A stretch of 64,000 nt of DNA, taken from the NCBI GenBank assembly GCA_040753435.1, contig JBFMEN010000052.1, positions 129 through 64,128 on the forward strand. Reading direction: 5' to 3'. Positions 41,644 through 60,924 of the stretch are shown one piece after another. A program made the translations under genes and the position numbers. Origin of the DNA: Candidatus Omnitrophota bacterium (GTDB taxonomy: Bacteria > Omnitrophota > Gorgyraeia > Zapsychrales > JANLHA01). Under the pieces are notes generated by a model. It saw only the letters and a list, made by a program, of their open reading frames with translations. It made no database searches and was not told the DNA's origin. Every line of letters starts with the position of its first letter. Within the stretch, counting starts at the first letter, position 1.

Positions 41644-41649
41644 TTTTGA

Positions 41650-41890
41650 TGATTGGTCCGGGGGGGGGGTATGTTTATGGTGGTGAAAAAATTTAATGTA
41701 GAGACGTCTTGGCGGGATGTCTCCAGGCAAGAGGGTAATGGCGTCGTCGATGCAGAGATGACCCGGCGGGTCATCTCAAACGGCAATGAGTCGGTTCTTC
41801 CGACGGAGACGTCTCATCGGGACGGGGCACAGGAGATTGCTGGAAGGGAGACGTTGGGCAGGAGGAGTCTGAAACGGAACTTCAGTTGAT
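41650..41890. repeat. Palindrome-rich intergenic repeat element, copy 1, containing a G10 homopolymer at 41660-41669
   Basis: gatgattggtccgggg...gagacgtct/agacgtctc inverted repeats...atgacccggcgggtcatctcaaacggcaatgagtcggttcttccgacggagacgtctcatcgggacggggcac.ggagattgctggaagggagacg. The same string (about 90% identical) recurs at 55812-56050. Confidence 0.85.
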
Positions 41891-41976
41891 GGGTTATGGC
41901 GTATAGCCAGGAAGAAGATCTTGATGGTGTTACTGAGTGGATTAGAAAAAAACAATATTAAAGACTGGAGGAAAAA

Positions 41977-42039
41977 ATGATTAAGAAGCCGAATTTGAAA
42001 GGGCATGGCAAGGTTGAATCTTTATTAACATTATTTTAA
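41977..42039 (+). CDS. Small ORF (20 aa, MIKKPNLKGHGKVESLLTLF) with a strong RBS in the AT-rich leader of the paralog operon. It may be a leader peptide or spurious
   Basis: ggagg sits 8 nt upstream of ATG at 41977. The ORF lies in the 600-nt intergenic/promoter region before 42238. Confidence 0.2.
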   Translation: MIKKPNLKGHGKVESLLTLF

Positions 42040-42237
42040 CTAAATTTGTTATAAACATATGATTTTATTATATTTATATATTTTATTAAATTTGCCAATT
42101 TGTTCTATATCTTTTATACTTATATCAGAGAAAAAAAGAAATCTCCCGCTCTATTTCTTTCAATTCAAATCTGATTTTTATATATTTTGCGACTTGGGAA
42201 AGTTTATTTCTTACTATAAGAAGACGAGGAGAAACTA

Positions 42238-45200
42238 ATGAGACACCCTAAAAAGGCAAACACCTATAATTTTTTCCAACGGTTAGTTTCTGGTTTTTTA
42301 GTTTTTGTATTTAGCTTGGGAGTAACATTTCCTCCCGATATCGCTCGAGCTCAAATATTACCGGACCTTTTGTCGCCAGGAATGATGGTCTCTCAAAGCT
42401 CCGGTTATGCCCCTGTTTTAATCAAAGGCATTACCGTCCATCCTGAGAATCCGTTAGCGTTTGATTTTATTATAGATACAGGCGATTCTGGCATTGAACT
42501 TAAAAGTCAGAGGTTCAGGCAGGAATCCTTGCGTCTGGTGAAATACTTTTTGGCGTCGTTAACTGTTCCGGCTAATGAGCTTTGGGTTAACTTGTCTCCT
42601 TATGAAGAAGATCGAGTGATTCCCCAGTCTTTCGGACTGACAGAAATGGGCATCGATTTGCTGGCGCAAGATTATATGTTGAAGCAGTTGACAGCGAGTC
42701 TGACGTATCCGGAAGATGAACTCGGAAAGAAATTCTGGAAAAGGGTTTATGAGCGCGCTTATAAAGAGTTAGGAACAACTTCCGTACCTTTCGACAATTT
42801 TCATAAAGTTTGGATTGTGCCTCAGGAAGCACTGGTCTATCAGAAAGACAATCAAGCATTTGTTGTTCGTAACAAATTAAAAGTGATGATGGAGGAGGAT
42901 TATTACGCGTTTCGACGGGCGCATGGTTATGGGTATGATATAGAGAAAAAATCAGCAGAATCTGACAACAGGTTGACCAGACTTCAAGCTAAAGTGATGA
43001 GGGAAATCATCCTTCCTGAAATCGAGAAAGAGGTTAATGAGGGAAAGAACTTCGCTCAACTTCGTCAGATTTTTCAAAGCATGATTTTAGCCACCTGGTT
43101 TAAGAAGAATCTTAAGGAAAGTCTTCTCGGACAGGTATATGCGGATCAGAAAAAAGTTAAGGGTGTGGATGTTGACGATCCGCAAGTTAAAGAAGAAATC
43201 TACCGGCAGTATGTGAAGGCTTTTGAACACGGTGTTTATAACTATATTAAAGAAGATTATGATCCGAATTTTCAAAAGATTGTTCCTCGTCACTATTTTT
43301 CTGGAGGGGCTTATGGTGGGAACATGCCTGCTGTACAGCAAACAGTTTATGCCGGAACAAGGCAGGACACCGCAGCATTACGTAATGAAGTTGCTGATGT
43401 TATAGAGGGTGATGGCAAGATTGGTGATGCTTCTATTGTTTTAGCGGAAACAAAGAACGAGGCTGCCTCCATAGAGGAAAAGGCAAAGAAGTTTGCAGGC
43501 CAGGGTGATGCGGCGATGCTTTCGGAGTATAAACCGGTGGTCGTTGCCTTTGGCGGTCCTGACGGCGTATTGTTTGAGTATGACCGATGGCACAAGACAT
43601 CTTTCGAAGATGCGGTCACTTTTAACAAGTTTTTGCAACTGCTTAATAAAGGGGTTGATGTTGTTATTATCAGCGATCAACGTTATTTTGATTGGATGAA
43701 AATTCCCGATGAGGTTTTGGAGTACAAGTTGGTTGAATTAGTCAATAAAAAGAAACCTGAATTAGGCAAAGCTTTAAGCGCCCAAGGGTGGAACTTTAGT
43801 GATTCCCAAGCGTCGGAAGTGATCACAATAATAAACAACAACGAAAAAGATTTTTTGAATAGCTTGAAAGATTGGGGGGATCAGTCTAAAAAAATCCTTG
43901 AAATGGATCTGCGTCCTAACTTTGTTGAGTTGGTTCGAAAGAAGAATCCTGATCTGTTAACGAATCTTGTGGGGGAGAAAGGACTGAAAGCTCGACTTGT
44001 TGAGCCCCTGCGAAAAGCGGCACCAGGCGCATTACAAAATTTAACGGTATATGCGTCAGCAGGAACTTTTAAAATAACTTTTGATGAAAACGGTGAGGAA
44101 ATAGAGGATCGTTCTTATAATATCCGCAACTCTATGGATTCCCGAAGCGCCGAAAAGATAAAACAAGCTATTGAAGCTATTGTGAAGGAAGTGTATTGGA
44201 GCGATTATCAGAAGCGGCCTCATGATTACCGTGAGGCTTATCCTGCTTATACCTTTGAAGGGTATGAACCCCAGGTTGTCCTGCACAAGAATGGTGATTA
44301 TGTTCAGGGGTTGACTGTCTTGTATTTACCTTCAGCTTTACTTGGAGCTCATAATCCATCAGAAAATAAGGGCATAGGAGATATTAGGAAAAAAGTTTTT
44401 GAAGTTATTAAGGAGAGGCTTTCTAAAGAGATTCATCCGTATATATGGGCCCATGGGCAATATACTCAAAATATGCGCGGGATGGTTTCCATTGATCTCC
44501 GACGCAGGAACACCGGGAAGGATTTTGCTCTTCGGGAGTACATGATGGAAAAAGGGGTTCTACCATCACAGATAATATCCTTCTGGAGTTTGGATGAGTA
44601 TTCGGGTGATCAGCCAATGAGCTATGTTGAAGAGATTACTCGATTTATCAATTCAAAAAGACAGGGGGATGAATTTTTTAAATCGCTGGGGATAGGGTTA
44701 GGCGGTATTTACTACTGGCTTCATTTTCTTTTACAGAAACATCTTGGAAGTGTTAGCGAGATAGTGACCGCTTATAATGAAGAAACAGCCCGGCACCCAT
44801 CGTTAGTAGGAGCTAAAAAATATATTGAAGAGAGCAAAAATGGACAAAAGTTCCCAAGAGAAACAGAAGATGCCATAGAGAATCTTTATGAGATTTATCG
44901 AAGTTTTGCGTTGACATTTTCTGAGGCGCCTGCGCCCTGGACGGCTATTTATACAGAAGCCTTCGAATTATCTGATAAAGTGAAAGACGCATTGAATGAA
45001 TTTAGTGATGTGTTTTATAAAGTTGAGAGTGTTGAAAGTTTGTTCAAAGAGGCGGATATAATTTTTTACAAGAGGGATGTTGATTTTAAGACGTTTTACC
45101 AAGGGGTTGATCCTCGAGCCGCGCGAAACATTAATACCTTGCTAAAGGCCTATAACGGCGACGAAGAAAGACTTAAGAATGATGTGATAGCGGCTGCAAA

Positions 45201-47196
45201 TTCGATGAATATTAGTATAGCTAGGGTCTTGAGCGGCTACTATCAGGATCGGTACGTTTTTCGGTACAAAACTCCATTATTTGAAACGCTTAAATCAAGA
45301 GCGCCTCCGGTGGATTCGAAAGTTGTTTATTTAGGTGGTGGCGGTGTGGCCACGACAACTCTTCTTCAAAAATTTATGGAAAAAAAATTCAAAGAACTCG
45401 CCTGTATTATTTCTTCTTCTGATGATGGTGGATCTTCCAAAGACATTATGATGAGTTTGTTTAAGAGATTCGGATTTTATTTTATTCCCCCAGGGGATGA
45501 CGCAGGATTGAACATCTTTTTATCGAATGATAATTTTAAAATTTTTACACTATTCTGGTTGGAATCACAAGGAAAAGATCTTCCGGACGAGGTCTTAATT
45601 AGTGCCCAAAAGAAAGACCTCGGGAAATTTCGTATAACTGCGGATTCCATCTATCCGGCATGGAGAGAAAGAGTTTTAAAGGAACTGGAAGCATTGCGCG
45701 ATCCAGCGAAGAAACAAGAGATTGAGAAAGCACTGGCAAAGTCTTTGGGACTTGGTGAAATTAATATTGATTATAAGAGTCAACGCCACCTGGTATTTTT
45801 GACAAGTCTGCTGTCTTTGGGCGATCTTGTAGATCGAGACTTGGTTACCCCCGGGATTGTTGGTTTGAATAATGCCTCGACAGCGAATCTGCTGATGATA
45901 GGTGATGCATACGATTCCAGGGTTATTCGTGAAGGAATGCCGGTTGATAAAGATTCCAGACAGTTTCTTCTTCATCAAATGTTAGAGCTAGGAGATGCTC
46001 AGCCTGTTCCTGTAAGTTATGATTATGAGCGTAGCGCGTTGATTGCTTTTGATAAAGGCGGAGAGGTTCTTGAAACAACTCAGACCAGGATTACTGATAA
46101 GGCGCATAATAAGCTTACCCATGATCTTTATTTTTCTCATCGGACAGCAGAAGAGCGAATGAAGCGGTTTGATTCTTCAGATGATCAATCTTATCCCAAA
46201 GCAGCTCAAAAGGCTGTTGAGATTATCCAAAATTCAGAAATGCTGGTTTCAGGGAATGGATCATTGTGGACATCTTTGATGCCGGTTTTGATGTATAAGG
46301 ATGTGGCGCAGGCAGTACTTGATAAACGCGCAGAAGGAGCGCCTGTAGTGTTTATTGCGAAGATCAAGAGTGATTTGGAGACGGCCGCCATCAAAATGAA
46401 CGATTCAGGGGAAGCAGAGGTTTTGGAGCGAGATGGAAAATTAGTTCTTAATTTAGAGCAGATGAATCTTGTTGAGCAGCTGAAGGCCGTAGTTCGTCAT
46501 ATAAGACGTTCGGTCGGCAGGGATGATATTGAGCTTAAAGATGTTTTTTCCCATGCCATTATTGCGAATCTAAGCAAGGAGGCGATTCGGATTTTGAAAG
46601 AGAAAGAGAGTTTGACAGAAAAAGAGATTGGTGCCTTAAGAGAAGGTGGTGCCCAGGTAAGCAAGCTCCTGAAAGGGATTCAGCCTGTAGTTACTCAGGA
46701 AGAAAAAGAATATGTAATGAATCAGGGGTTGAAGATTATAGAAATCAGCGATAAGGATATCACTGGGATTGAAAAAGGGAAACCCTTGTATGATAACGAT
46801 AATTTATACGAGGTGTTAAAGAGTATTAAGCCTGAGGTCTTTGCTGATTCTGCCATGTTGACAAAAGAATCGTTACAGGTGACACCGGTAAAGGCCGGAG
46901 ATCAAAAAGCAGTAAAAACAGGGGGAGAGCAAGTCGGCGGTATTGATCTTAATCCGGACTATCTAGATCTTAGGATTAAGCGCGATGGAAATGGCGTGCC
47001 GCTTCCCATGTCTCAGCAATCTATTGAGCAACTGCGCCAGATCGATGGATTTCTGCCTGTGATTATTAATGTGACTCCGATCCAGAATTTTCCGATGGCG
47101 CTGGGTCTTGATGTGAGTTCTGAAAATGAGGATGGGACGACCAATAATCGTTTAAGCCATCTGGATGTCTTTGATAAGATGGCAAGGTTGAATTGA
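42238..47196 (+). CDS. Secreted modular paralog 1 (1652 aa): signal peptide, shared N-terminal domain, CofD/YvcK-like (UPF0052) core, shared C-terminal module
   Basis: RBS aggag is followed by ATG 42238. The N-terminal hydrophobic signal is LVSGFLVFVFSLGVTFPPDIARAQ. About 360 aa are homologous to the N-termini of the next two genes. VVYLGGGGVATTTLLQKF...LACIISSSDDGGSSKDIM...FIPPGDDAGLNIFLS (about 45320-45530) matches the YvcK/CofD GGGTG, DDGGSSG and PPGD motifs. The C-terminal module is GGIDLNPDYL...LPVIINVTPIQNFP. Confidence 0.9.
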   Translation: MRHPKKANTYNFFQRLVSGFLVFVFSLGVTFPPDIARAQILPDLLSPGMMVSQSSGYAPVLIKGITVHPENPLAFDFIIDTGDSGIELKSQRFRQESLRLVKYFLASLTVPANELWVNLSPYEEDRVIPQSFGLTEMGIDLLAQDYMLKQLTASLTYPEDELGKKFWKRVYERAYKELGTTSVPFDNFHKVWIVPQEALVYQKDNQAFVVRNKLKVMMEEDYYAFRRAHGYGYDIEKKSAESDNRLTRLQAKVMREIILPEIEKEVNEGKNFAQLRQIFQSMILATWFKKNLKESLLGQVYADQKKVKGVDVDDPQVKEEIYRQYVKAFEHGVYNYIKEDYDPNFQKIVPRHYFSGGAYGGNMPAVQQTVYAGTRQDTAALRNEVADVIEGDGKIGDASIVLAETKNEAASIEEKAKKFAGQGDAAMLSEYKPVVVAFGGPDGVLFEYDRWHKTSFEDAVTFNKFLQLLNKGVDVVIISDQRYFDWMKIPDEVLEYKLVELVNKKKPELGKALSAQGWNFSDSQASEVITIINNNEKDFLNSLKDWGDQSKKILEMDLRPNFVELVRKKNPDLLTNLVGEKGLKARLVEPLRKAAPGALQNLTVYASAGTFKITFDENGEEIEDRSYNIRNSMDSRSAEKIKQAIEAIVKEVYWSDYQKRPHDYREAYPAYTFEGYEPQVVLHKNGDYVQGLTVLYLPSALLGAHNPSENKGIGDIRKKVFEVIKERLSKEIHPYIWAHGQYTQNMRGMVSIDLRRRNTGKDFALREYMMEKGVLPSQIISFWSLDEYSGDQPMSYVEEITRFINSKRQGDEFFKSLGIGLGGIYYWLHFLLQKHLGSVSEIVTAYNEETARHPSLVGAKKYIEESKNGQKFPRETEDAIENLYEIYRSFALTFSEAPAPWTAIYTEAFELSDKVKDALNEFSDVFYKVESVESLFKEADIIFYKRDVDFKTFYQGVDPRAARNINTLLKAYNGDEERLKNDVIAAANSMNISIARVLSGYYQDRYVFRYKTPLFETLKSRAPPVDSKVVYLGGGGVATTTLLQKFMEKKFKELACIISSSDDGGSSKDIMMSLFKRFGFYFIPPGDDAGLNIFLSNDNFKIFTLFWLESQGKDLPDEVLISAQKKDLGKFRITADSIYPAWRERVLKELEALRDPAKKQEIEKALAKSLGLGEINIDYKSQRHLVFLTSLLSLGDLVDRDLVTPGIVGLNNASTANLLMIGDAYDSRVIREGMPVDKDSRQFLLHQMLELGDAQPVPVSYDYERSALIAFDKGGEVLETTQTRITDKAHNKLTHDLYFSHRTAEERMKRFDSSDDQSYPKAAQKAVEIIQNSEMLVSGNGSLWTSLMPVLMYKDVAQAVLDKRAEGAPVVFIAKIKSDLETAAIKMNDSGEAEVLERDGKLVLNLEQMNLVEQLKAVVRHIRRSVGRDDIELKDVFSHAIIANLSKEAIRILKEKESLTEKEIGALREGGAQVSKLLKGIQPVVTQEEKEYVMNQGLKIIEISDKDITGIEKGKPLYDNDNLYEVLKSIKPEVFADSAMLTKESLQVTPVKAGDQKAVKTGGEQVGGIDLNPDYLDLRIKRDGNGVPLPMSQQSIEQLRQIDGFLPVIINVTPIQNFPMALGLDVSSENEDGTTNNRLSHLDVFDKMARLN

Positions 47197-47286
47197 TTCA
47201 ATCTTTACTGGTATAGGGTAAAAAAGCGTTTTTAATTTAAATGATTCATTAAGAACACCAAAAACATTTTAGGGAGAATCTGTCTT

Positions 47287-49881
47287 ATGACATACAGAAG
47301 AACGAGAGCCTATAGGTTATTGTCAATGTGTTTAAGTTTGATCTTGGCGTTGTCCTTTTCGGTTCCGGTTCAGGCTCAAGGCACATTTTTAACCGGGCTC
47401 AATTTACCTGCTATCGGGACAAAAGTTGTTCCAAGTGCGGCTTATCATCCGCCACTTATGGCCGGAATGACAATTTATCCCGAAGATCCCTTGAAATTTG
47501 ACTTCATCGTCACAACGGGAGATGACAATCTGGAAGGAGAGGCGTTTAAGAAGGAGGCGCAGCGGTTGATTAACTATTTTCTGGCCACATTGACTGTCCC
47601 CGACGATGAAATGTGGGTTAATCTTTCTCCGTATGAAAAAGACCGCATTATTGCAGATGGTTTGGGGACGACGGAGATGGGTCGTGACATGCTCGTTCAA
47701 GACTATATATTGAAACAGCTGACTGCGTCATTAATGTATCCTGAAGAGGAATTAGGAGAAAAATTTTGGAAAAGGGTCTATGAAAAAACAAAGTCAAGAT
47801 TTGGCGCTACGGAAATTTCTGCGAACACCTTCAACAAAGTTTGGATTGTTCCGGAGGAAGCTGTTGTTTATGTGAATGGGGCGAATGTTTTTGTCAATAA
47901 AAGCCATCTTAAAGTAATGCTGGAGGAGGACTATTTGGCTCTGGAAAGCAATCAAGAGAGCACACGCCATGGCTTGGGACAGATGACAAAGGACGATATT
48001 GAGGCTATAAGTCAGGACGCCAAGGAAATCCTTAAGGAAATAATTCTTCCTGAAATAGAACGGGAGGTTAATGAGGGTAAAAATTTTGCAAACCTCCGCC
48101 AGATTTATTATTCAATGATATTGGCGACATGGTACAAGAAGAATTTAAAAAAGAGCATTCTGGGCAAGGTATACATTGATAAGAACAAGATTGACGGTAT
48201 CGATCTTGACGATAAAGACGTTAAAGAAAAAATCTATGATAGATATATCCAGGCGTTCAAGCAAGGTGTTTACAATTATATTAAAGAAGACTTTGATGAA
48301 AGGACACAGGAAGTGGTTCCAAGAAGATATTTTTCCGGCGGCCTCAGGGGACAAAAAGATGTTGTTGCGGGTAAAGATTTATCATCAACCGCTGAAATCT
48401 CCCGTGCGCAAAGAGGAGAAATTGGTGCCAGGAAAGTGGCGTTTAACGCAGAGTTAAAAAATCATGACGCAGCTATGTTAACCGATACAGTCATTCCCGC
48501 GGAGATGAAAGATGCCATGGTACGGGAGGGCGGCAAGGCCATACGAAATTTCCTTGGAGGGCTTGTTCCCTATGTTGGTAATCGTGAGAGTTCTCCTTTT
48601 GCTGATATCGCTAAAGTTGAGCCTTTATGGGAGGCGGCGCAAAAGTTTGAAGCCAATCCAGACAATTTTACGGATGAAAAGTTGATTCAAGAGAAGACGG
48701 GAATCCCCCGCATTGAATTGAGGGATTTGAACCCTGAAACAGGGGAAGTCGCGCAGGTCGCGATTATAGGTATTCCTGGGAATTACCGATCGGTTCCTCT
48801 GGAAGGCTTTCAATCAATCGATCAGGCAGATTCGTTGTCAATCAGAATGGGCGGTTTTATGACGCTTGAAGCGAATGTAGGAGGTGTCAATAAATCGTTA
48901 CCTTTAAACTATCTTGCCCAGCATTTCAATGAAATTCTTGACATGTTGGGATATACCCCGGGAACATATATTGATGCGCGTGCCACGCGAACAGTTATTG
49001 CAACGGACGGCGACGGGACATTATATGGCAAGCCAACGGCAACAGAAAATCCGATTTTAAATGATAGCGCTGCTTATGATAATTTAATGGAATATTTAAG
49101 GGTTGGCGGGTTTTATGTCTTAACATCAGGGAATGACATTCAATTGACAAGAGAAAGACTCCTGGCCGGCAGGGGGATACCTGTTGAAGTGCGAAACAGG
49201 TTTCTTATCGTTGGAAATGGCGGTGCGAATATGGGTTATTTAAATGCGAATGGCGATCTCGTCGAGATAGATCAATATAAACGTCAGTCATTGTTAGAAA
49301 ACAGTGCGGATGAAATTACGGATTTGGATGTCGTTTATGTGGGAGATGATGAAAAGCTGGCTGGTAATGATATGCCCGGGTTTAGAAAAGTCGGCCTGAG
49401 CCAGGCAATCAGCGTCTCCTCAAAAGATTTCCAGAATAATCCTGTGGAACTGCGCAAAAATTATATTGGTAATATGGAGCAAGGGACGAGTGCTTTATTT
49501 GGCGCAATTATTGCCCGGGTTAAACAGTCACCGTTTACGCCTCTTTTTGAGGAAAAGACGCTTCAATCAATTATCTTAAAAGCCCGGGAATCTTTTTCGA
49601 ACACGATTTACGACTCGGCTATGTTAGGGGAAGGATCATTGGCTGACCGTTCTGCCAAGAACGGCGGTATTGATTTTAATTCCAATAATATGAGACTTGA
49701 TGAAGTAGGGGATGAAATTGATTTTCAACTTGATGAAACAAGTTTAAAAAATATCGATGTGAATACCATTGAAGGGATCATTCCTATGATCATCAACATT
49801 ACGCCGATCGTTGATTTTTTCCCTCTTTTGAGTCGTGCAGAGGGGATAGTGGATGACCCGCAGTTGTCTGCGCGGAATTAA
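47287..49881 (+). CDS. Secreted modular paralog 2 (864 aa): signal peptide, shared N-terminal domain, HAD-superfamily phosphatase-like core, shared C-terminal module
   Basis: Signal peptide LLSMCLSLILALSFSVPVQAQG. The N-terminal domain is colinear with paralogs 1 and 3. HAD motif I is VIATDGDGTLYG (about 49005), motif II is YVLTSGN and motif IV is VVYVGDDEKLAGNDMPGF (about 49341). The C-terminal module is GGIDFNSNNMRLD...IIPMIINITPIVDFFP. Confidence 0.9.
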   Translation: MTYRRTRAYRLLSMCLSLILALSFSVPVQAQGTFLTGLNLPAIGTKVVPSAAYHPPLMAGMTIYPEDPLKFDFIVTTGDDNLEGEAFKKEAQRLINYFLATLTVPDDEMWVNLSPYEKDRIIADGLGTTEMGRDMLVQDYILKQLTASLMYPEEELGEKFWKRVYEKTKSRFGATEISANTFNKVWIVPEEAVVYVNGANVFVNKSHLKVMLEEDYLALESNQESTRHGLGQMTKDDIEAISQDAKEILKEIILPEIEREVNEGKNFANLRQIYYSMILATWYKKNLKKSILGKVYIDKNKIDGIDLDDKDVKEKIYDRYIQAFKQGVYNYIKEDFDERTQEVVPRRYFSGGLRGQKDVVAGKDLSSTAEISRAQRGEIGARKVAFNAELKNHDAAMLTDTVIPAEMKDAMVREGGKAIRNFLGGLVPYVGNRESSPFADIAKVEPLWEAAQKFEANPDNFTDEKLIQEKTGIPRIELRDLNPETGEVAQVAIIGIPGNYRSVPLEGFQSIDQADSLSIRMGGFMTLEANVGGVNKSLPLNYLAQHFNEILDMLGYTPGTYIDARATRTVIATDGDGTLYGKPTATENPILNDSAAYDNLMEYLRVGGFYVLTSGNDIQLTRERLLAGRGIPVEVRNRFLIVGNGGANMGYLNANGDLVEIDQYKRQSLLENSADEITDLDVVYVGDDEKLAGNDMPGFRKVGLSQAISVSSKDFQNNPVELRKNYIGNMEQGTSALFGAIIARVKQSPFTPLFEEKTLQSIILKARESFSNTIYDSAMLGEGSLADRSAKNGGIDFNSNNMRLDEVGDEIDFQLDETSLKNIDVNTIEGIIPMIINITPIVDFFPLLSRAEGIVDDPQLSARN

Positions 49882-49886
49882 ACACT

Positions 49887-52800
49887 ATGAAAAATCCCAA
49901 ATCAACAATTTACCGCGTAGTTTCTGCTTGTTTAATCGTTATTCTGGCAGTGACGCTTTCTGTCCCAGCTCAGGCTCAGAGCGCGCTTACCCCAAGCGTC
50001 ATCGAAGGGCTTAATCTGCCTGCTCCAGGGACAATGATTTCATTAAGTAGTGCCTACAACCCCCCTATAATCAAAGGCATCACCATTTATCCCGATAATC
50101 CATTGAAGTTTGATTTTATTGTTTCTCCTGGTGATGACAATCTTAAGGGTGATGCATTGAAGAAAGAAGCGGACAAGCTCATTAAATACTTTATGGCGTC
50201 TTTAACTGTTCCGGCCGATGAAATGTGGGTGAATCTTTCGCCGTATGAAAAAGATCGCATTATCGCAGATGGATTAAGCCAAACAGAATTAGGGCGGGAT
50301 TTGCTGGCCCAGGATTATATTCTCAAGCAGGTCACCGCTTCTTTAATGTATCCAGAAGAAAAGCTGGGAGATGATTTTTGGAAAATGGTTTACGCGAAAG
50401 CACAGGTTCAATTTGGCACGACGGAAATACCGGTGAACACATTTAATAAGGTTTGGATTGTTCCGGAGAAGGCGAATGTCTACGTTCATGGCAATAATAT
50501 TTTTGTTGTCGATAGCTATCTAAAAGTCATGTTGGAAGAGGATTACTTGGCATTAGAAACGAATTTGAAGCATGCTAATCATGGCGTGGGAATAATTCCT
50601 AAAGACCAAATAGAAGAAACCAGTGATGTATCTAGACAAGTCATTCGGGAAATCTTAATTCCAGAAATTGAGAAAGAAGTGAATCAGGGGAAGAATTTCG
50701 CAAGCCTAAGACAAATATTTAATTCTATGATCCTGGCGACTTGGTATAAGAAGAATCTGAAAGAAAGTTTGCTCGGACAGGTTTATGTGAATCAGAATAA
50801 AGTTGAGGGCGTTGACTTGAAGGATAAACAAGTTAAAGAAAAGATTTACAATCAATATGTGAAAGCGCTTGAAAAAGGGGTATTTGATTTTATCAGAGAG
50901 GATGATGACCCAATTGCGCAGGAAAGAATCCCGAGGAGATATTTTTCTGGTGGAATTCAAGGAGCTGATAATGTAGGGGAAAGGATTATGTCTTATGCGG
51001 AAATAGAAAAGGTTTTTGTTGGGGATGAAGCGCTGATTACTGTTGAACTAAGAAATCCTAAAAATCCAAGTGAAAGATTGGTTGATACCGGCGCAACAAT
51101 GAAGAAGCTGTGGACGAAAATAAAAAAAATAAGCGTTAGTGACAACGACAGATGGTTTTTGAGAGACGGAAATTTATCTCATTGGGAACAAATTATTGAT
51201 GGTCAGGTTGAGTTTGATAAAGAAAAAATGGTTATAACTTTTAGCGTAGGAAACAATAAAGGAGAAACTCAGAGAATAAGCGTAAAGGTTAAAAAAGTTG
51301 TTAGTAAAAATGAGATTGTCAAAGGTGCACATCTAGAAGCTGGAGCGCTTAGGTTTCTGGGCGTGGCTGATTGGTATGATACTAAATTTCAGGGAGAAAC
51401 AGTTTTGCTGGAAGAAAATCCTTATAATATCAACTATATTTCTACAGATAGCATAATTGGCGTCTCAGAATTTTTATTTCAAAACGAGCCTTCTTCGATC
51501 GCTTATCCTATCATTGAAACAGCAATAAAAAGCGATCGAAAGTTTTTTGCCCAAGCTGCAAATCGGAGCGGTGATGAAGTTCGCGGCTGGATATCGAAAG
51601 CCCTTGGGTATTTCCCTTTTCAATCGTTGGATTGGGAAAGTGTACCCAAACAGTTTCTTGCTAAAGCATTAGCCAGAAATGAATTAACCAGATATGAAAA
51701 CATTCTAAGACTCGAAGATGTCTTATTCGCCGGCCAAATCGATGTCAATGAAAAGACAAATTCGAATGCAAAAGCGTTGTTTAGCTTAAATCCAGTACGA
51801 CGCTTAAGAGCATATATGGCGCTTAAACAAACGAATGACTTGGAAGAAGCAAAGCTATTGAAGGAAATGTATCCAAGGGCGAGTATTGCTATGAAAAAAT
51901 TAGTTCGTTTTTTATTCTATTGGGTTACCAGAGAGGAAGCGATGGTTACAGGCGAATATTACGGAATAACAAGGAAAGGAAACAGTCGGCTGAAAGATAC
52001 GAAGGAAAGATTGGATCAGTTATTGCCGACCTTGTTGGAACGATTTCCGAATGAAGTATTGAGGATACGTGATGAAGGTGTATCAACAGGAACTCTTTCT
52101 GAAAATCTTTTTCGTCATGTCGCCTCAAAGACAAAAGAATTTAAATATATTGCTACTGATTTGGTTACAAAGTTGATTTATATTACGAATTCAGAAAAGG
52201 GATATACGGCCGTTTTTACCGATGAACAAGATGGCCATACGGATAATTTTATTCAGATTAAACAGGGTAACCGAATTTATACTCCTCAAGGAGTAAATAG
52301 AGTTGTTCGTGTTCTGGGGGAAGACGCTGCGTCGTTTACCGCAGAGGTTCGGAGTGCGTTTGAAATGTATAAACAAGAAGGTGGATTATCAGATAAGTAT
52401 GTGACTGAAGAAGTTGGGCTTTTTGATTTTGAAGTCGAAAAATTAGCAAAGACTGATGAGCGCTTTGAGTTGTCTCAACATAACATCTTCCAAAAAGTGC
52501 CGACTCAAGAGCAGGGGCATTTAACAATACTTTCAAATGTATTAGTTCCTACTTATTATAGCCAGAGTGAATTAGTTGAGGGTATTAAGTCTGCGGGGTT
52601 AAATACGGTCGAAGGTGGTTTGGTGTTGGTCATTAATGAATCATATCTTGGAACTGGTCTTGGACCTGTATCAGACGGTATTTATGTTCATCCTTTTTCA
52701 GTTTTTGAAAGAAGAGGAAATCAGCTAGTTCGCCTATTTTTTTCTTCGATAGGACCACAAAAAGGATTTAATCGCGCCATGAAGGCTGAGGACATAGAAA

Positions 52801-53036
52801 GTGTAAACTTGGGAGACAGGGAGGTTATTAGTAGTGACGTTGGAGGCATTGACTTAAATTCTAACAATTTAGAACTAAATGTTCAGGGTGATGAGGTAAA
52901 GATGAGCCCTTATCCCGGAATTTTAAATGAAATTTCCGTTAATGGATTTGTTCCCGTTATCATTGATGTCGCTCCAATTTCAAACGTTCCAATATTACTT
53001 GGTATTCAATCAGTTGAAACCACCGGCGTTAGATAA
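49887..53036 (+). CDS. Secreted modular paralog 3 (1049 aa): signal peptide, shared N-terminal domain, divergent middle with a methyltransferase-like motif, shared C-terminal module
   Basis: It starts 5 nt after the stop of the previous gene (translational coupling). Signal peptide VVSACLIVILAVTLSVPAQAQS. The N-terminal domain is conserved (ITIYPDNPLKFDFIVSPGDDNLKGDALKKEADKLIKYFMASLTVPADEMWVNLSPYEKDRIIADGL...). VLRIRDEGVSTGTLSENLF...KYIATDL (about 52060-52170) resembles SAM-MTase motifs I and II. The C-terminal module is GGIDLNSNNLELN...FVPVIIDVAPISNVP. Confidence 0.9.
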   Translation: MKNPKSTIYRVVSACLIVILAVTLSVPAQAQSALTPSVIEGLNLPAPGTMISLSSAYNPPIIKGITIYPDNPLKFDFIVSPGDDNLKGDALKKEADKLIKYFMASLTVPADEMWVNLSPYEKDRIIADGLSQTELGRDLLAQDYILKQVTASLMYPEEKLGDDFWKMVYAKAQVQFGTTEIPVNTFNKVWIVPEKANVYVHGNNIFVVDSYLKVMLEEDYLALETNLKHANHGVGIIPKDQIEETSDVSRQVIREILIPEIEKEVNQGKNFASLRQIFNSMILATWYKKNLKESLLGQVYVNQNKVEGVDLKDKQVKEKIYNQYVKALEKGVFDFIREDDDPIAQERIPRRYFSGGIQGADNVGERIMSYAEIEKVFVGDEALITVELRNPKNPSERLVDTGATMKKLWTKIKKISVSDNDRWFLRDGNLSHWEQIIDGQVEFDKEKMVITFSVGNNKGETQRISVKVKKVVSKNEIVKGAHLEAGALRFLGVADWYDTKFQGETVLLEENPYNINYISTDSIIGVSEFLFQNEPSSIAYPIIETAIKSDRKFFAQAANRSGDEVRGWISKALGYFPFQSLDWESVPKQFLAKALARNELTRYENILRLEDVLFAGQIDVNEKTNSNAKALFSLNPVRRLRAYMALKQTNDLEEAKLLKEMYPRASIAMKKLVRFLFYWVTREEAMVTGEYYGITRKGNSRLKDTKERLDQLLPTLLERFPNEVLRIRDEGVSTGTLSENLFRHVASKTKEFKYIATDLVTKLIYITNSEKGYTAVFTDEQDGHTDNFIQIKQGNRIYTPQGVNRVVRVLGEDAASFTAEVRSAFEMYKQEGGLSDKYVTEEVGLFDFEVEKLAKTDERFELSQHNIFQKVPTQEQGHLTILSNVLVPTYYSQSELVEGIKSAGLNTVEGGLVLVINESYLGTGLGPVSDGIYVHPFSVFERRGNQLVRLFFSSIGPQKGFNRAMKAEDIESVNLGDREVISSDVGGIDLNSNNLELNVQGDEVKMSPYPGILNEISVNGFVPVIIDVAPISNVPILLGIQSVETTGVR

Positions 53037-53401
53037 AAAATAGCTGATGTTTTTGGAACTCTTCAGGAACAAATATATAATTTCTATATTTCTATGTCAT
53101 CTTTCCAATGAAAACTTCCTGAGTTCAAACGGCAATTCCCAAAAATATAAAATTTGACTTAATTTGAAGGTGGATAGGCCGGCTCCCTTGGGGGTTTGAG
53201 TCCTACAAATATAAATCTCCTTGCCTAAATTCATGAATTTTTCTATGATATACGAACATTTTTTATAAATTTTTATTATGGCCATCTCGCAGCTTCCGTC
53301 TTGGCGGATTATCTTGTAGACGGAGCAGACGGCTGCTAGCAAACAAAAGGCCTTTTGGGATTGTGAGTTTTGAGTTAACGACCGGCTAAAAAGGAGCTGA
53401 A

Positions 53402-54352
53402 ATGTACAGACCACAAATACGCGTTTTTGATTGCACCATTCGGGATGGCGGACTGATGAATAATCATTTGTTTGATCATGATTTTGTGCGTGCGGTTTAT
53501 CAGGGCTTGTCCGAAGCCGGTGTGGATTACGTGGAATTGGGGTATAAAAATTCCAAGGAACTATTTTCGCCGGAGGAATACGGCGCCTGGAAATTTTGTG
53601 AGGACGAGGAAATTTTTAAAATTACCGACGGCGTTGAAAACGGAGCCAGGGTTTCGGTCATGGTCGATATCGGCCGGGTCAGGATGGAAGACGTCAAGCC
53701 GAAAAGCCAGAGTCCGGTCGATATGATTCGGGTCGCGTGCTATGTTAAAGAAGTGGACAAGGCGATCGTTATGGTTAATGAGTTTCATGACAAGGGATAT
53801 GAAACCACGATCAACATCATGGCGATTTCCCGTGATCAGGGGCCGGAACTGGAAGCGGCGCTGCATCAGATCGAAAAAGAAAGCAGGGCCGACGTGGTTT
53901 ATATCGTCGACAGCTTTGGATATTTCTATCAGGAGAACATCGAGTATCTTGTTAAATTATACAAGGGTATCATGAAAACGCGTGAGATTGGTTTTCACGG
54001 GCACAATAACCAGCAGCTTGCCTTCGGGAACACAATCGAAGCGATCATTCACGGCGCGAATTATCTGGACGCCACGGTTTACGGGATTGGCCGGGCGGCA
54101 GGGAATTGTCCTCTTGAGCTTTTGATCGGGTTTTTAAAAAATCCGAAATTTGATATTCGTCCCATTCTCGATCTTATCTCAACGCGGTTTGTTCCTCTTC
54201 GTGAGCAGATCGAGTGGGGATACATTATTCCTCACGCGATCGCCGGAATGCTCAACGAGCATCCCCGCGCGGCCCTGGCCCTGCGCAAGACTGAACGTAA
54301 AGAAAATTACAGGGACTTTTATGAAAGCCTGACGAATACGGGACTGGATTAA
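53402..54352 (+). CDS. HMGL-like (DRE-TIM metallolyase) aldolase family protein, 4-hydroxy-2-oxovalerate-aldolase-like
   Basis: RBS aaggag. N-terminus RVFDCTIRDGG matches the TLRDG motif. GFHGHNNQQLAFGNTIEAIIHGANYLDATVYGIGRAAGNCPLE matches the HxHNxxGxAxANxLxAxxAGAxxVDxTxxGxGxxAGNxxLE signature. Confidence 0.85.
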   Translation: MYRPQIRVFDCTIRDGGLMNNHLFDHDFVRAVYQGLSEAGVDYVELGYKNSKELFSPEEYGAWKFCEDEEIFKITDGVENGARVSVMVDIGRVRMEDVKPKSQSPVDMIRVACYVKEVDKAIVMVNEFHDKGYETTINIMAISRDQGPELEAALHQIEKESRADVVYIVDSFGYFYQENIEYLVKLYKGIMKTREIGFHGHNNQQLAFGNTIEAIIHGANYLDATVYGIGRAAGNCPLELLIGFLKNPKFDIRPILDLISTRFVPLREQIEWGYIIPHAIAGMLNEHPRAALALRKTERKENYRDFYESLTNTGLD

Positions 54353-54384
54353 ATTTAGCACATGCGACGCCCGAAGAGTATCTC

Positions 54385-54447
54385 TCCTGGTTAGCAGCAA
54401 AGATTATTGTGATGCGGCTCCGGAGAATCTGGTGGGGCTTTGGGGTT
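54385..54447. repeat. Upstream duplicate of the pilin gene 3' end (partner at 54944-55003)
   Basis: ggttagcagcaaagattattgtgatgcggctccggagaatctggtggggct matches ggttagcagcaaagattattgtgatgttccggagaatttggtgggact inside the pilin CDS. Translated in the pilin frame, the upstream copy gives LVSSKDYCDAAPENLVGLWGF, matching the pilin C-terminus RSVSSKDYCDVPENLVGLGFG. Confidence 0.8.
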
Positions 54448-54493
54448 TTAAAATATAGCAGGAAAGAAAACGCCTGATGAACAGCAAAATAAT

Positions 54494-55048
54494 ATGAAAA
54501 ATGGGTTCACATTATTAGAGCTGGTTATTGTCGTCATCATTATCGGGGTATTGGCCTCGCTGGCCTTGCCGCGGATGGTTTCAATGATTGAGGGATCGCG
54601 TTCTGCGGAGGCGATTTCAGCGCTGACGTCAATTCGCAGCGCGTTGGAGCGGTATTACCTGATGCATCCGGGTGAGGAGGTCTTTGCATCTTCAGACCAG
54701 ACGGAGACTTTTGAAATGCTGGGACTGGATGATCCCGGATCTTCACCCGGGTCGAATTTTGGTTACCTGGCAAGTATTAGTATGATAGGCGGTGAAGCGT
54801 CTTTTTTTTCTGCGGCAGTGCGTAATTATAACAATAATGGCAGTCCTTATAGTGGGGCACTTTTATTGGAAAATATTAATTTTATTTATTTGGGAGTCAA
54901 TGAGACAATGATCGCCTTGTGCGGGTTTGGAAATTTCAGATCGGTTAGCAGCAAAGATTATTGTGATGTTCCGGAGAATTTGGTGGGACTCGGGTTTGGA
55001 ACCGTCTCAACGATCACTGCGCTCGGATATCTTGCCACGAATATGTAG
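54494..55048 (+). CDS. Type IV pilin / pseudopilin-like protein (prepilin-type N-terminal cleavage/methylation domain)
   Basis: N-terminus MKNGFTLLELVIVVIIIGVLASLALP. It has the G|FTLLE class III signal with Glu+5 and a hydrophobic alpha1 helix. The C-terminal Cys pair (LCGFG...DYCDV) is typical of the pilin D-region. Confidence 0.85.
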   Translation: MKNGFTLLELVIVVIIIGVLASLALPRMVSMIEGSRSAEAISALTSIRSALERYYLMHPGEEVFASSDQTETFEMLGLDDPGSSPGSNFGYLASISMIGGEASFFSAAVRNYNNNGSPYSGALLLENINFIYLGVNETMIALCGFGNFRSVSSKDYCDVPENLVGLGFGTVSTITALGYLATNM

Positions 55049-55098
55049 GGTGGTGAAGAACCTTCCCGAAAACCGGGCTTAGTCTGAAATAAAGCGCC

Positions 55099-55728
55099 AT
55101 GAAAATTCAGGACTTTAAAAACCTTCCTATCCTCGGGATTCTTCGCGGAATTTCTACCGGAGAGATTTCTCCTGTTGTTGAAACCTGTGTTTTGTCCGGT
55201 CTGAAAACGATCGAGATTACCATGAATACCGACGGCGCTCCCACCCTGATAAAAAAAATGATTCAGGAAGCCGCGGGGAGATTGACTATCGGCGCCGGAA
55301 CGGTGTTGTCGGTCGAAGATGCTCAAAAAGCAAAAGATGCAGGCGCGGCATTTATCGTTGCTCCCAATCTTAATCCTGGCGTCGCTGATTTTTGCAAAAA
55401 ACAAAGACTTCTTTTTTTCCCCGGCGCGTTAACCCCCGGGGAGATTTTTCAGGCCTGGGAGGCCGGCGCCGCCATGGTCAAAGTTTTTCCTTCCGGTTTC
55501 TTCGGCCCGGAATATTTTAAAGAGATCAAGGGGCCGTTTAATCAAATCGAACTTCTTGCCTGCGGCGGGGTTAATGCTGATAATATCGGCGAGTTTTTCC
55601 GCTGCGGCGCATCTGCCGTTGCCTTCGGCGCGAGTGTGTTTAAAAAAGAATGGCTGCGGGAAAAATCTTTCGACAAGATCGGGAATGAGATTCAGAAATT
55701 GGTAAAGGCGTATCAGAATCGTGCGTAG
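55099..55728 (+). CDS. eda: 2-dehydro-3-deoxyphosphogluconate (KDPG) / 4-hydroxy-2-oxoglutarate aldolase
   Basis: LPILGILRG...GLKTIEITMNT...IGAGTVL...AGAAFIVAPN...FFPGALTPGEI...AMVKVFPSG (Schiff-base Lys)...GPF...LLACGGV. The match is colinear with Eda family signatures. Confidence 0.92.
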   Translation: MKIQDFKNLPILGILRGISTGEISPVVETCVLSGLKTIEITMNTDGAPTLIKKMIQEAAGRLTIGAGTVLSVEDAQKAKDAGAAFIVAPNLNPGVADFCKKQRLLFFPGALTPGEIFQAWEAGAAMVKVFPSGFFGPEYFKEIKGPFNQIELLACGGVNADNIGEFFRCGASAVAFGASVFKKEWLREKSFDKIGNEIQKLVKAYQNRA

Positions 55729-55806
55729 AGACGAGGCGATGCCTGCCTGTAGGCTGGCCTCGTCTATACAGGTGAGCAATTTTTAAAAACATAAAATATA
55801 AAAATC

Positions 55807-55840
55807 CCCGGATGATGATTGGTCCGGGGTTTTTTTGTGA
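55807..55840 (+). terminator. Rho-independent terminator after eda
   Basis: aaaatccccggatgatgattggtccggggttttttt has the stem ccccgga/tccgggg followed by T7. Confidence 0.7.
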
Positions 55841-56050
55841 GTTGTACGGAGACATCCCCTGCCGGCAGGCGGGCCAGCCTACCGGCAGGCGACGGGACGT
55901 CTTCAGGCAAGAGGGCAATGGCGTCGATGTAGAGATGACCCGGCGGGTCATCTCAAACGGCAATGAGTCGGTTCTTCCGACGGAGACGTCTCATCGTGAC
56001 GGGGCACGGGAGATTGCTGGAAGGGAGACGTCCCATCGGGACGTCTCTAC
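55812..56050. repeat. Palindrome-rich intergenic repeat element, copy 2 (direct orientation relative to copy 1)
   Basis: gatgattggtccgggg...caagagggcaatggcgtcg...atgacccggcgggtcatctcaaacggcaatgagtcggttcttccgacggagacgtctcatcgtgacggggcacgggagattgctggaagggagacgtcccatcgggacgtctc. It contains several gacgtc-centred palindromes. Confidence 0.85.
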
Positions 56051-56180
56051 ATGGGGATAAACGAACCCTTGTCGAAAATTCATCATGAATAATCCGGCGA
56101 ATTGGGGAAGGGATGAAATGTATCGGAAAATGCAGAGACGCGGCATGGTTTGGCTTGGCTCACCATAAATTGCCTCGTCT

Positions 56181-57995
56181 CTACGTACGAAGAAACTGTT
56201 TATCCAGAAAATCAGATGTGATTTCAACGACCACCGGCCGGCCGTGCGGACACGTAAATGGATCGCGGCATTGTAAAAGTTGTTCGCGCTGGAATTCAGC
56301 CTGTTGACGGTTTAAAGGATCGCCGGCCATGACAGAAGCGCGGCAGGCGCGCCGGGCGATCGATTCATGATCAACCCGTGAAATTTGGCCGCCGGCGAGA
56401 AGTTCGCGCACGGCATCAATGGGATTTTTAATCAGGGCAGGATGGCTTTGGATAGCGATAGTTTCATCGTCGAACTGGTTTGTATCAAATCCCAGGGCCG
56501 ACAGCTCCTGCTGATTATCGCGCCATGACAAAAGATCTTGCGGAGATGCTTTAAGCAAATATGGCGCCAGCAGATTTTGAACTTCAAGCCGGCTTTCCTT
56601 AAGTTGGACGATGAATTGTTCAAACATAATCCTTTCCTGTGCGGCATGCTGATCGACAACCAGGAGATTTTTTCCGGTTTCAAAGAAAATATATTTGTTC
56701 ATAAAGCTGCCGACATAGACAGAGCTGCCCAATTTATCTTTTAATGTCTGCCGTTTCTGTTGAAACAAAAGTCCGGTAAAATCTTCGGCTGTCTGGTCCT
56801 GCGGATAGGAATATTGTTCGGTCAAGGGCTGTTGCTGCTGTGAAGTGAAAAATTCATCGGCGGTCTTTTCGAAAACAGCCTCCTGTTTTCCGCGTTCCTT
56901 AATGGCCTCATCGATCATCCGGCGTATTCCCGGACGGGGCGAGTCTTTGGAATTCTCCAGCGGCTCCCAGATCTGCTTAGGTTTTCCGGCGCTCATTAAC
57001 GCCCCTTCGCATATGCGGCGCAACAACTTCCCGAGCTCCTGCTCGTCTCTGATTTTAACCTCGCGTTTGGTAGGATGGATATTGACATCAATATCTTTGG
57101 GAGGCATATCGATCATGAGGCAGAAGAACGGATGATGCCTCGGCGGAAGGATCAGGCGGTAAACATCATTCAGGTGAAATGAAATGTTTTTGTTTTCAAC
57201 GGGTCGTCCATTGATGAAAATAAACTGAAGGTCGCGTTTGGCGCGGATGATGTTGATGTCCCCCAGGATCATGCGGACACCAGTTCCCTGTTCTGAAAAT
57301 TCACGGGATGTTTCAAGTAAAAATTTTTCTTCAAGATTTAACACGTCCGCGATCCTGGCCTTGAGATCCGCCAAAGGTTCCAGATTCAGAATGTTTTTCC
57401 TGTCACTCATTAACTGAAAGCGGCATTCGGGATTGAGAAGGGTGTAGGGAATGACGGTATTCAGGATTTGCTTAATTTCGCCCGAGTCGGATTTTAAGAA
57501 TTTTTTTCTGGCAGGCGTATTGAAAAAAAGCTCTTTGACCTCGATTTCAGTTCCGTCGTGCAAAGAACAGGGCGAGAGGTTTAGCTGCTCTCCTCCCCGC
57601 ATGTGAATTTCCCAACCCGAGCCGGTTTTTGGGCCGCGTTCCTGTTCATTTGATCTGCTGCGAAGAATGATGTCGGAGACGGCACAAATGCTGTAAAGGG
57701 CTTCTCCCCGGAAACCCAGCGAATGGATATCGAATAAATCTTCCGCGGACCGGATCTTGCTGGTGGAATGACGGAGGAAAATCTTTGTCATATCCTCTTC
57801 TGCTATTCCGGCGCCGTTGTCCTTGACCCTGATTAACTTTTTCCCGCTGTCTTCAAGTTCTATCGAGATTGAATTCGCGCCCGCATCGATTGAATTCTCG
57901 ATCAATTCCTTTATAACGGAAGCGGGACGGTCAATGACCTCGCCGGCGGCGATCTTGCTGATAATGTCAGGCGTGAGAATATTAATTTTTGGCAT
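56181..57995 (-). CDS. mutL: DNA mismatch repair protein MutL
   Basis: The track ORF is 56181..58079 (-). The canonical N-terminus MPKINILTPDIISKIAAGEVIDRPASVIKELIENSIDAGA starts at the Met encoded 57993-57995, so the true start is probably there. GHKL ATPase motifs are DNGAGI and GFRGEAL. The C-terminal dimerisation region is present. Confidence 0.93.
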   Translation of the reverse strand: MPKINILTPDIISKIAAGEVIDRPASVIKELIENSIDAGANSISIELEDSGKKLIRVKDNGAGIAEEDMTKIFLRHSTSKIRSAEDLFDIHSLGFRGEALYSICAVSDIILRSRSNEQERGPKTGSGWEIHMRGGEQLNLSPCSLHDGTEIEVKELFFNTPARKKFLKSDSGEIKQILNTVIPYTLLNPECRFQLMSDRKNILNLEPLADLKARIADVLNLEEKFLLETSREFSEQGTGVRMILGDINIIRAKRDLQFIFINGRPVENKNISFHLNDVYRLILPPRHHPFFCLMIDMPPKDIDVNIHPTKREVKIRDEQELGKLLRRICEGALMSAGKPKQIWEPLENSKDSPRPGIRRMIDEAIKERGKQEAVFEKTADEFFTSQQQQPLTEQYSYPQDQTAEDFTGLLFQQKRQTLKDKLGSSVYVGSFMNKYIFFETGKNLLVVDQHAAQERIMFEQFIVQLKESRLEVQNLLAPYLLKASPQDLLSWRDNQQELSALGFDTNQFDDETIAIQSHPALIKNPIDAVRELLAGGQISRVDHESIARRACRASVMAGDPLNRQQAEFQREQLLQCRDPFTCPHGRPVVVEITSDFLDKQFLRT

Positions 57996-58110
57996 GGTTT
58001 TAATTTTTAAAGGAAAAAGGAAATGCGAAAAGTGAAAAAATTTAAGGTTTGAAATCGCCTTGTCATTCGAAAGATGCATTTAAAGTGAAACGATTTTTAA
58101 ACAAGACAAG

Positions 58111-60708: not shown

Positions 60709-60852
60709 AAGGCAATTATGAAATCACAAAATGGGAGGCAAATATTTGATTTTGCCGGCATTCCGGATTCATTTTAAGAATAAGGGGTTGAAATTTGCGC
60801 CTATCATACCATAAAAAGAGAAAAAGAGGAAACAACAAAGATAGCGTACAGG

Positions 60853-60881
60853 TTGAATTAAAAACAGCCCGATGATATAAT
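60853..60881 (+). promoter_or_regulatory. Near-consensus sigma70 promoter (TTGAAT, 17 nt spacer, TG-n-TATAAT) for the downstream + strand gene
   Basis: ttgaat at 60853-60858, tgatataat at 60873-60881 (extended -10), RBS aaggaagg before ATG 60925. It sits in the 216-nt divergent intergenic region shared with mutS. Confidence 0.55.
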
Positions 60882-60924
60882 CCATTTAAATTTAATAAGT
60901 TATAATTTTAAAAAAAGGAAGGTC

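Follow-up and report, generated by a model that had tools for sequence, protein, structure and literature searches.

Does a palindrome-rich direct repeat that brackets 14 kb of genes mark the ends of an inserted module, or does it stand on both sides of the block for reasons of its own? The locus that raises this question belongs to a metagenome-assembled genome (MAG) of Candidatus Omnitrophota; we analysed 64 kb (the window) of a 74,257-bp NCBI contig whose MutL is MEW5895397.1 at 100% identity. One copy of the repeat (copy 1) follows the stop codon of a giant gene, and the other (copy 2) lies behind eda, in the spacer that eda shares with the convergent mutL; between the copies stand three large paralogous genes (par1, par2 and par3) and the genes for an aldolase, a pilin and Eda. 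The answer we favour, as a probable if not a secure one, is that GTAG-headed units resembling repetitive extragenic palindromic (REP) sequences make up the repeat, a low-copy composite organized in the manner of a bacterial interspersed mosaic element (BIME) or a REP doublet forming hairpins (REPIN), and placed at the 3′ ends of genes.

When the giant/par1 spacer was compared with the window by blastn, 41713–41854 matched 55893–56031 at 93.7% identity over 142 nt with a single 3-nt indel (E=1e-57), in the same orientation and far above chance; within this core, a repeat finder delimited 41745–41854 and 55922–56031 at 97% over 110 nt. A second conserved module lies to the left: the 17-mer TGATGATTGGTCCGGGG, at 41647–41663 on the plus strand of copy 1 and beginning 4 nt past the giant-gene TAA, is matched exactly at 55813–55829. 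A preliminary description of the locus had drawn the direct repeat as one element of ~230 nt at 41650–41890 and 55812–56050. Repetition in the same orientation is confirmed by the blastn match and the exact 17-mer, but what is repeated is a mosaic of two conserved modules, ~210–225 nt altogether, and similarity stops sharply at 41854 and 56031, to the right of which the copies resemble each other no more than shuffled sequences do. The intervals between 17-mer and core (49 nt in copy 1, 63 nt in copy 2) likewise align no better than shuffles; by eye, they share an architecture with indels, among them, in copy 2, the insertion of a nested palindrome of 32 nt.

On the plus strand 3′ of eda, positions 55806–55836 form an intrinsic terminator, CCCCGGA-tgatgattgg-TCCGGGG followed by T7, which contains the 17-mer of copy 2. 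The canonical terminator hairpin with which copy 2 had been said to begin (55806–55829, with its T7) is the top-ranking intrinsic-terminator match in the region, and only copy 2 qualifies as such a terminator; an A-rich run ahead of it means that it could act in both directions. The 17-mer corresponds to the loop and 3′ arm of this hairpin. Copy 1 is without the 5′ arm, and there, as had been noticed, a G10 tract (41660–41669, plus strand, 17 nt past the giant-gene stop) occupies the place of the T7. The tract may be slippage-prone sequence or a poly-G artefact of sequencing or assembly, both being possible.

Motifs of a recurrent palindromic unit are concentrated in the two spacers concerned, giant/par1 and eda/mutL. 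Together they measure 718 nt and hold GTAGAGA[CT]G five times, against a single occurrence in the remaining 63 kb (Poisson P=1.6e-12); GAGAC[AG]TC is found there nine times, with 0.05 expected, and all seven occurrences of GAGACGTC in the window, where 1.3 are expected, fall inside the two copies. The unit consensus reads GTAGAGACG-N(8-45)-CGTCTCTAC; a further GTAGAGACG at 28639, within the giant gene, was rejected as a unit, there being no palindrome at that place.

Such units are numbered here U0 to U5, and stems of 10–13 bp lie at 41755, 55725, 55858, 55930, 56025 and 56134. In copy 1, U1 (41698–41724, plus strand) reads GTAG-AGACGTCT-tggc-GGGATGTCT, with the opening 12 nt of the core as its 3′ arm; similarity to U4 of copy 2, in inverted orientation, is 83% (41696–41724 against 56052–56024). 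Its counterpart in copy 2, U1′ (55844–55904, plus strand), has a GTAC head and the arms GGAGACATCCCC and CGGGACGTCTTC, with a loop enlarged by the nested palindrome CCTGCCGGCAGGC..GCCTACCGGCAGG (55858–55889). Both cores (plus strand, 41713–41854 with 142 nt and 55893–56031 with 139 nt) contain U2, a G(T/C)AG head joined to the perfect 11-1-11 palindrome GAGATGACCCGgCGGGTCATCTC. In copy 1 it spans 41752–41777 on the plus strand, an 11-bp perfect palindrome behind a degenerate GCAG head; in copy 2, on the same strand, the GTAG is at 55929–55932 and the palindrome at 55932–55954. A small hairpin follows in each core (GTCGGttcttCCGAC at 41790–41804 in copy 1, 55967–55981 in copy 2), and then U3, a degenerate or truncated unit (41805–41824 and 55982–56001). 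U4 (56023–56050), GTAGAGACGTCCC-gat-GGGACGTCTCCC on the minus strand, has as its tail-side arm the last 9 nt of the core. Two further units frame the whole 460-nt eda/mutL spacer as an inverted pair of the GTAGAGACGAGGC palindrome, and their GTAG heads supply both stop codons: U0 (55725–55769, plus strand; GTAGAGACGAGGC...GCCTCGTCTATAC, 13-bp stem), whose head at 55725–55728 includes the eda stop TAG, and U5 (56134–56184; GTAGAGACGAGGCA...TGCCGCGTCTCT on the minus strand, beginning GTAGAGACGAGGC), whose head includes the mutL stop at 56181–56183. The order around copy 2 is accordingly U0(+) U1′(+) U2(+) | U3(−) U4(−) U5(−), with the heads pointing outward.

The two ends of the core also pair with each other, GGGAYGTCTYC (the initial 11 nt) with the last 9–12 nt, GGGAGACGT[CCC], in a stem of 9–11 bp. 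Predicted folds reach −56.4 kcal/mol for copy 1 (z=−2.5) and −64.9 kcal/mol for copy 2 (z=−4.0); both cores beat their shuffles on either strand (z −2.5 to −4.0), and the whole copy-2 region does so with z=−5.3. In copy 1 the left outer hairpin (U1) is intact and the right head arm gone, while in copy 2 the right outer hairpin (U4) is intact and the left disrupted; with opposite ends preserved, the copies look like differently decayed forms of one ancestor, REP(+) – ~118-nt spacer – REP(−). Every unit lies either behind the stop codon of the giant gene or in the spacer between the convergent eda and mutL, and none occurs in the 5′ or divergent spacers at 53037–53401, 54353–54493 and 60709–60924.

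Searches beyond the window returned isolated palindromes and no further copy of the composite. A 27-mer of the core had no exact match in 185,579 species genomes, a collection that does not hold this MAG. A 21-mer returned 35 loci from JGI metagenomes, each of them a coincidental match in coding sequence of a high-GC genome or the 23–29-nt palindrome by itself, with none extending into the element; two other core segments had no match in IMG/VR. Blastn with both copies found nothing in phage and plasmid collections or in 12 related loci. We also searched the 82-aa product of an open reading frame (ORF) annotated over copy 2 against 5.8 billion protein clusters and, in a search that used no word index, 1.84 billion representatives; its only match was its twin over copy 1. 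The MAG's NCBI proteins are within the searched collection, so that the assembled MAG is unlikely to contain more intact copies; such a search would miss copies that have diverged, lack annotation or were not assembled. Rfam 15 has no family over either copy at E≤1; its CRISPR-DR60 (42157–42193) and tmRNA-fragment (55392–55444) matches are weak and unrelated, and we judged them to be chance.

The single palindromes, on the other hand, are found in other genomes. The exact palindrome GTAGAGATGACCCGGCGGGTCATCTCTAC is present in unrelated metagenome contigs of 38–60% GC, and (G/A)TAGAGATGACCCGGCGGGTCATCTCTAC recurs, exact and intergenic, in the unrelated contigs L006, L014, L021/L025/L033 and L029, with L025 also carrying GTAGGGGCGTATTGCAATACGCCC and GTAGAGACACGCCATGGCGTGTCTC, further GTAG-headed palindromes. 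These exact occurrences indicate that GTAG-headed palindromes with identical stems are common to distant genomes. In a relative of the window (L040), units of the same head class are found as TGTAGAGACGCAC-ggct-GTGCGTCTCTACA at 3499–3528 and, 38 nt past its own giant-gene stop, as GTAGGGACGTTGC-acg-GCAACGTCCCTGC.

We turn to the block that the copies enclose. The giant ORF (22–41643, plus strand; 13,873 aa, a 41.6-kb gene with its TAA at 41641–41643) is followed by par1 (42238–47196), par2 (47287–49881) and par3 (49887–53036), an HMGL-type aldolase (53402–54352), a prepilin-type protein (54494–55048) and eda, encoding a KDPG/KHG aldolase (55099–55728, plus strand, stop TAG at 55726–55728). Facing eda on the minus strand are mutL (56181–58079, stop TAG at 56181–56183) and mutS (58111–60708), beyond which lie genes for a TPR protein, a 278-aa protein and a response regulator. 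We obtained nine related loci through MutL homologues at 60–66% identity and compared them by tblastn. In L046 a giant gene (33,383 aa) is followed by aldolase and eda, then by four genes and mutL; in L047 a giant gene (19,246 aa) by aldolase, eda, a 510-aa gene, three further genes and mutL, an aldolase–eda arrangement repeated in L049, where the upstream part is cut. In L043 the C-terminal part of a giant gene precedes aldolase, eda and the inverted mutL, and in L038/L039 a giant-like gene precedes one paralog (1938 aa), aldolase, eda and the inverted mutL. Nothing lies between the giant gene and the inverted mutL in L040/L041 and in L048, and in L044 a paralog directly faces mutL.

Judged from these gene orders, aldolase–eda behind the giant gene is ancestral, being conserved down to 60% MutL identity. 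On a neighbour-joining MutL tree, (L046,(window,((L038,L040),(L044,L043)))), the pair was lost from the site at least twice, in non-sister lineages; three relatives (L040, L048 and L044) are without the full set of intervening genes. The paralogs vary in number independently (0, 1 or 3 copies). Only the window has the pilin, which is absent from between aldolase and eda in L038, L043, L046 and L047. The enclosed region had been described as AT-rich, which holds for the paralogs at 42.2–53 kb (GC 0.39–0.43; GC at third codon positions, GC3, 0.34–0.42) and fails for aldolase, pilin and eda, whose GC3 of 0.50–0.56 is shared by mutL and mutS outside it. The compositional break is at ~53 kb and does not coincide with the repeat boundaries, and since the paralog homologues in L038 and L044 also lie below their neighbours in GC3, low GC is a property of the family. 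Neither Pfam nor NCBIfam finds an integrase, transposase or other recombinase in or beside the block. In L038, L046 and L047 the genes are present and the corresponding spacers share no repeat, which, by the criterion set in the preliminary description, refutes a block-specific insertion module. The non-unitary genes, the break at ~53 kb and the missing recombinase lend no support to the proposal that the repeats delimit a site-specific insertion or recombination module of 14 kb; we likewise rejected an integrated element or genomic island, given components with separate histories, a composition boundary off the repeat and, again, no recombinase.

Several features of these genes are recorded in their own right. 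The giant ORF holds 633-nt tandem repeats at 39.3–41.3 kb, and par1 has a CofD/YvcK-like domain at residues 1302–1397. The paralog family (window 42238–53036; L038 13892–19708; L044 9100–12912) comprises large proteins of 864–1938 aa, with a GDPGP1 match recorded for the L038 member. A 51-nt stretch of the aldolase–pilin spacer (54389–54439) shares 88% identity with the 3′ portion of the pilin gene (54943–54990) and may be the remnant of a second pilin copy. The HMGL-type aldolase is 84–90% identical across the window, L038, L043, L046, L047 and L049, although MutL is at 60–66% and eda at 54–67%, a disparity that would reflect either unusually strong conservation or exchange between lineages. 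At the far side of the spacer, the last ~75 nt of mutL (...PHGRP...LDKQFLRT*) are repeated twice more downstream in L043 (2918–3202), at 102–108-nt spacing, and shorter remnants of such repeats are seen in L040 (11816–11880); in view of these traces, the 3′ boundary of mutL resembles a hot spot of recombination.

Might the two copies nonetheless be a recombination scar or substrate, the remnant of a Campbell-type single crossover or the homology by which the genes between giant gene and mutL are looped out, and so bear on plasticity rather than expression? We think this unlikely, although several observations fit it. As direct repeats of 142 nt with 94–97% identity, the copies suffice for homologous recombination; they are the sole two detectable, share a contig and exactly flank the variable region. 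That region is a hot spot in which giant gene and mutL became neighbours in L040 and L048, and paralog and mutL in L044, by losses that are independent on the MutL tree, and a giant-to-mutL junction is the product predicted from a crossover of copy 1 with copy 2. The closest relative, L043, has besides its triplicated mutL 3′ end a repeat pair of its own around aldolase–eda: an unrelated 70-nt palindromic element of 9-nt periodic GTTCATGGC units, 80% identical between 3208–3277 and 5328–5397, which lies 3 nt past the giant-gene stop and again directly past eda. Against recombination stand the missing recombinase, the relatives that hold the genes without flanking repeats (L038, L046 and L047) and the differing history and composition of the enclosed genes; the intergenic context conserved in outgroups, moreover, makes aldolase–eda beside the giant gene older than the repeat. 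The junctions of L040, L044 and L048 contain no sequence related to the element of the window, but traces of it are not expected at this divergence, and their absence decides nothing. The stronger proposition, that the two copies are a working recombination pair through which the cell may lose, and possibly regain or amplify, a paralog–aldolase–pilin–eda cassette, strikes us as quite improbable; were it true, it would explain both the independent giant-to-mutL and paralog-to-mutL junctions and the repeat pair of L043. The L043 parallel admits two readings: these same 3′ ends may, in each genome, be colonized or served by a palindromic repeat of its own, or repeat pairs there may drive rearrangements.

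The remaining alternatives concern what the repeat is rather than what it does to the locus. NCBI annotates a hypothetical protein over each copy, AB1650_06505 (P0122; 41677–41889, plus strand, 70 aa) spanning copy 1 and AB1650_06540 (P0121; 55812–56060, plus strand, 82 aa) spanning copy 2, and the repeat could be the conserved coding sequence of two paralogous small protein genes. One forward frame does stay open across the core in both copies, the sole indel, being of 3 nt, is in frame, three of the eight substitutions are synonymous, and both ORFs were called by the NCBI pipeline. One open frame in six over 44 codons would, however, arise about half the time by chance on our own estimate, and the sequence is a chain of palindromes; the twin is the only homologue, Pfam gives no match, neither ATG has a clear ribosome-binding site, the N- and C-termini of the two products are unrelated, and the copy-2 ORF begins inside the terminator hairpin, by which it would be severed from the eda transcript. 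We therefore regard small protein genes as a highly unlikely explanation and the two ORFs, on these sequence features, as probably spurious artefacts of the repeat. It is very unlikely, too, that the element is a structured RNA, a 3′ untranslated region element or small RNA gene in which selection acts on the fold rather than on palindromic DNA. Cores that fold better than shuffles and are conserved far better than their surroundings would suit such an RNA, as would the closing-stem substitutions (T/C at 41718 and C/T at 41723), which retain G-U or G-C pairs on the plus strand. Yet the minus-strand fold is equally good, copy 2 lies behind a plus-strand terminator, neither Rfam nor the relatives provide a homologue, and two near-identical copies are too few for covariation. 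Least credible to us is an assembly artefact, whether a false join caused by the repeat or the collapse or duplication of a MAG segment: the core is about one read length, the G10 resembles a poly-G artefact, and an alternative resolution (giant gene, element and mutL, plus a circle) gives the same graph, but the copies differ at about eight positions and the 3-nt indel, each has unique left and right junctions, and gene order on both sides agrees with the relatives.

How, then, would a composite of REP-like units have come to lie at these two places? Its architecture is that of two inverted REP hairpins, GTAGAGACGTCCC-N3-GGGACGTCTCC, with GTAG heads outward, around a conserved, hairpin-bearing spacer of ~118 nt. 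The copies may have arisen by copy-and-paste of the REP type, or a segment of a 3′ spacer may have been duplicated locally or spread by gene conversion. The terminator hairpin is complete in copy 2 alone, and copy 1 starts in its loop, which indicates that copy 2, or something like it, was the parent of copy 1. The cluster would form stable 3′ hairpins in RNA, or in single-stranded or supercoiled DNA, and these would terminate the giant-gene, eda and mutL messages or block 3′ exonucleases on them; a terminator search finds no canonical terminator for the giant-gene message, and a role at transcript 3′ ends has been proposed for REPs in other bacteria (PMC3733652). The bracketing of 14 kb would then be a by-product of 3′-end positions and no mark of insertion.

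Several observations weigh against REP-like units as the explanation. High copy number is a hallmark of REPs, and the composite is detectable in two copies only, both on this contig, as is echoed by the ORF product that finds just its twin in the protein collections. The other 3′ spacers of the window (after par1, par3, the aldolase and the response regulator) hold no such units. No RAYT, the REP-associated Y1 tyrosine transposase, is encoded in the window or listed in the gene tables of the relatives' loci that we fetched. The shared 17-mer is half a terminator hairpin and not a REP, which a segmental copy fits better than REP mobilization, and copy 2, being downstream of the strong eda-side terminator, may be untranscribed on that strand.

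Known repeat classes provide the measure for this assignment. GTAG-tagged REPs are short palindromes of about 20–40 bp with GTAG (or GYAG/GTRG) at one end and stems of 6–13 bp; they often form head–head or tail–tail dimers and larger clusters with partners 20–100 bp apart, the spacers of head–head dimers tend to be conserved and at times carry small stem-loops, and their usual place is downstream of ORFs, where the neighbouring genes are unidirectional or convergent, with several families possible in one genome (Di Nocera, De Gregorio & Rocco 2013, PMC3733652). Units of this kind are found at 41698–41724, 55725–55769, 55929–55954, 56023–56050(−) and 56134–56184(−), with degenerate heads at 41752 (GCAG) and 55844 (GTAC); their stems are of 9–13 bp, their heads point outward, the conserved spacer holds small stem-loops, several stem types occur together, and in the window they lie downstream of ORFs in a unidirectional and a convergent spacer. 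They differ from described GTAG-REPs in amounting to at least nine units in two spacers and two composite copies in the 64 kb analysed, in an outer-unit spacer of ~118 nt, which reaches or exceeds the upper limit of the 20–100-bp range, and in the pairing of GTAG with CTAC in some units.

At the next level of organization, units in alternating orientation, conserved spacers and a larger closing hairpin reproduce the architecture of BIMEs, REP dimers and REPINs. With the BIMEs of Escherichia coli (PMC2817692), the element shares a mosaic of alternating palindromic units and non-palindromic modules in 3′ extragenic positions, for which mRNA 3′ protection and termination are the roles proposed; it has no sequence relation to them, and the binding of IHF, gyrase or Pol I is a BIME trait known from E. 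coli. Like a REPIN, it consists of two inverted REPs able to pair as one long hairpin, here with a 9–11-bp closing stem, but it is longer than typical REPINs, which number tens to hundreds per genome and are accompanied by a single RAYT gene (Bertels & Rainey 2011, PMC3116915).

Other classes were also considered. The preliminary description had offered a REP- or MITE-like family as one option, and as to kind, clusters of GTAG-headed palindromes in 3′ intergenic positions agree with the former, whereas two detected composite copies do not establish the size of a family. For a miniature inverted-repeat transposable element (MITE), the inverted ends GGGAYGTCTYC and GGGAGACGT are present, with no target-site duplication visible at either copy and a copy number of two. 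Attachment sites of the attL/attR type, or a Campbell-type duplication, would also appear as same-orientation direct repeats around genes variably present among relatives; the block in the window, by contrast, is without an integrase, a tRNA or tmRNA target or mobility genes, and its genes are largely ancestral and mixed in composition. Integron attC and dif-like sites we set aside without a formal test, the expected motifs and spacer geometry being absent and there being no recombinase.

The repeat is therefore ordinary in kind, neither an island marker nor a new type of mobile element. Its value is in part practical: two annotated "hypothetical proteins" are probably artefacts of a repeat, and because the pair flanks a region repeatedly rearranged among relatives, it is useful for judging MAG assemblies and the plasticity around giant genes. 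The survey of PMC3733652 did not include Omnitrophota, and if our assignment is right, GTAG-headed clusters of the REP and BIME kind occur also in this uncultured phylum, where they were previously unnoted.

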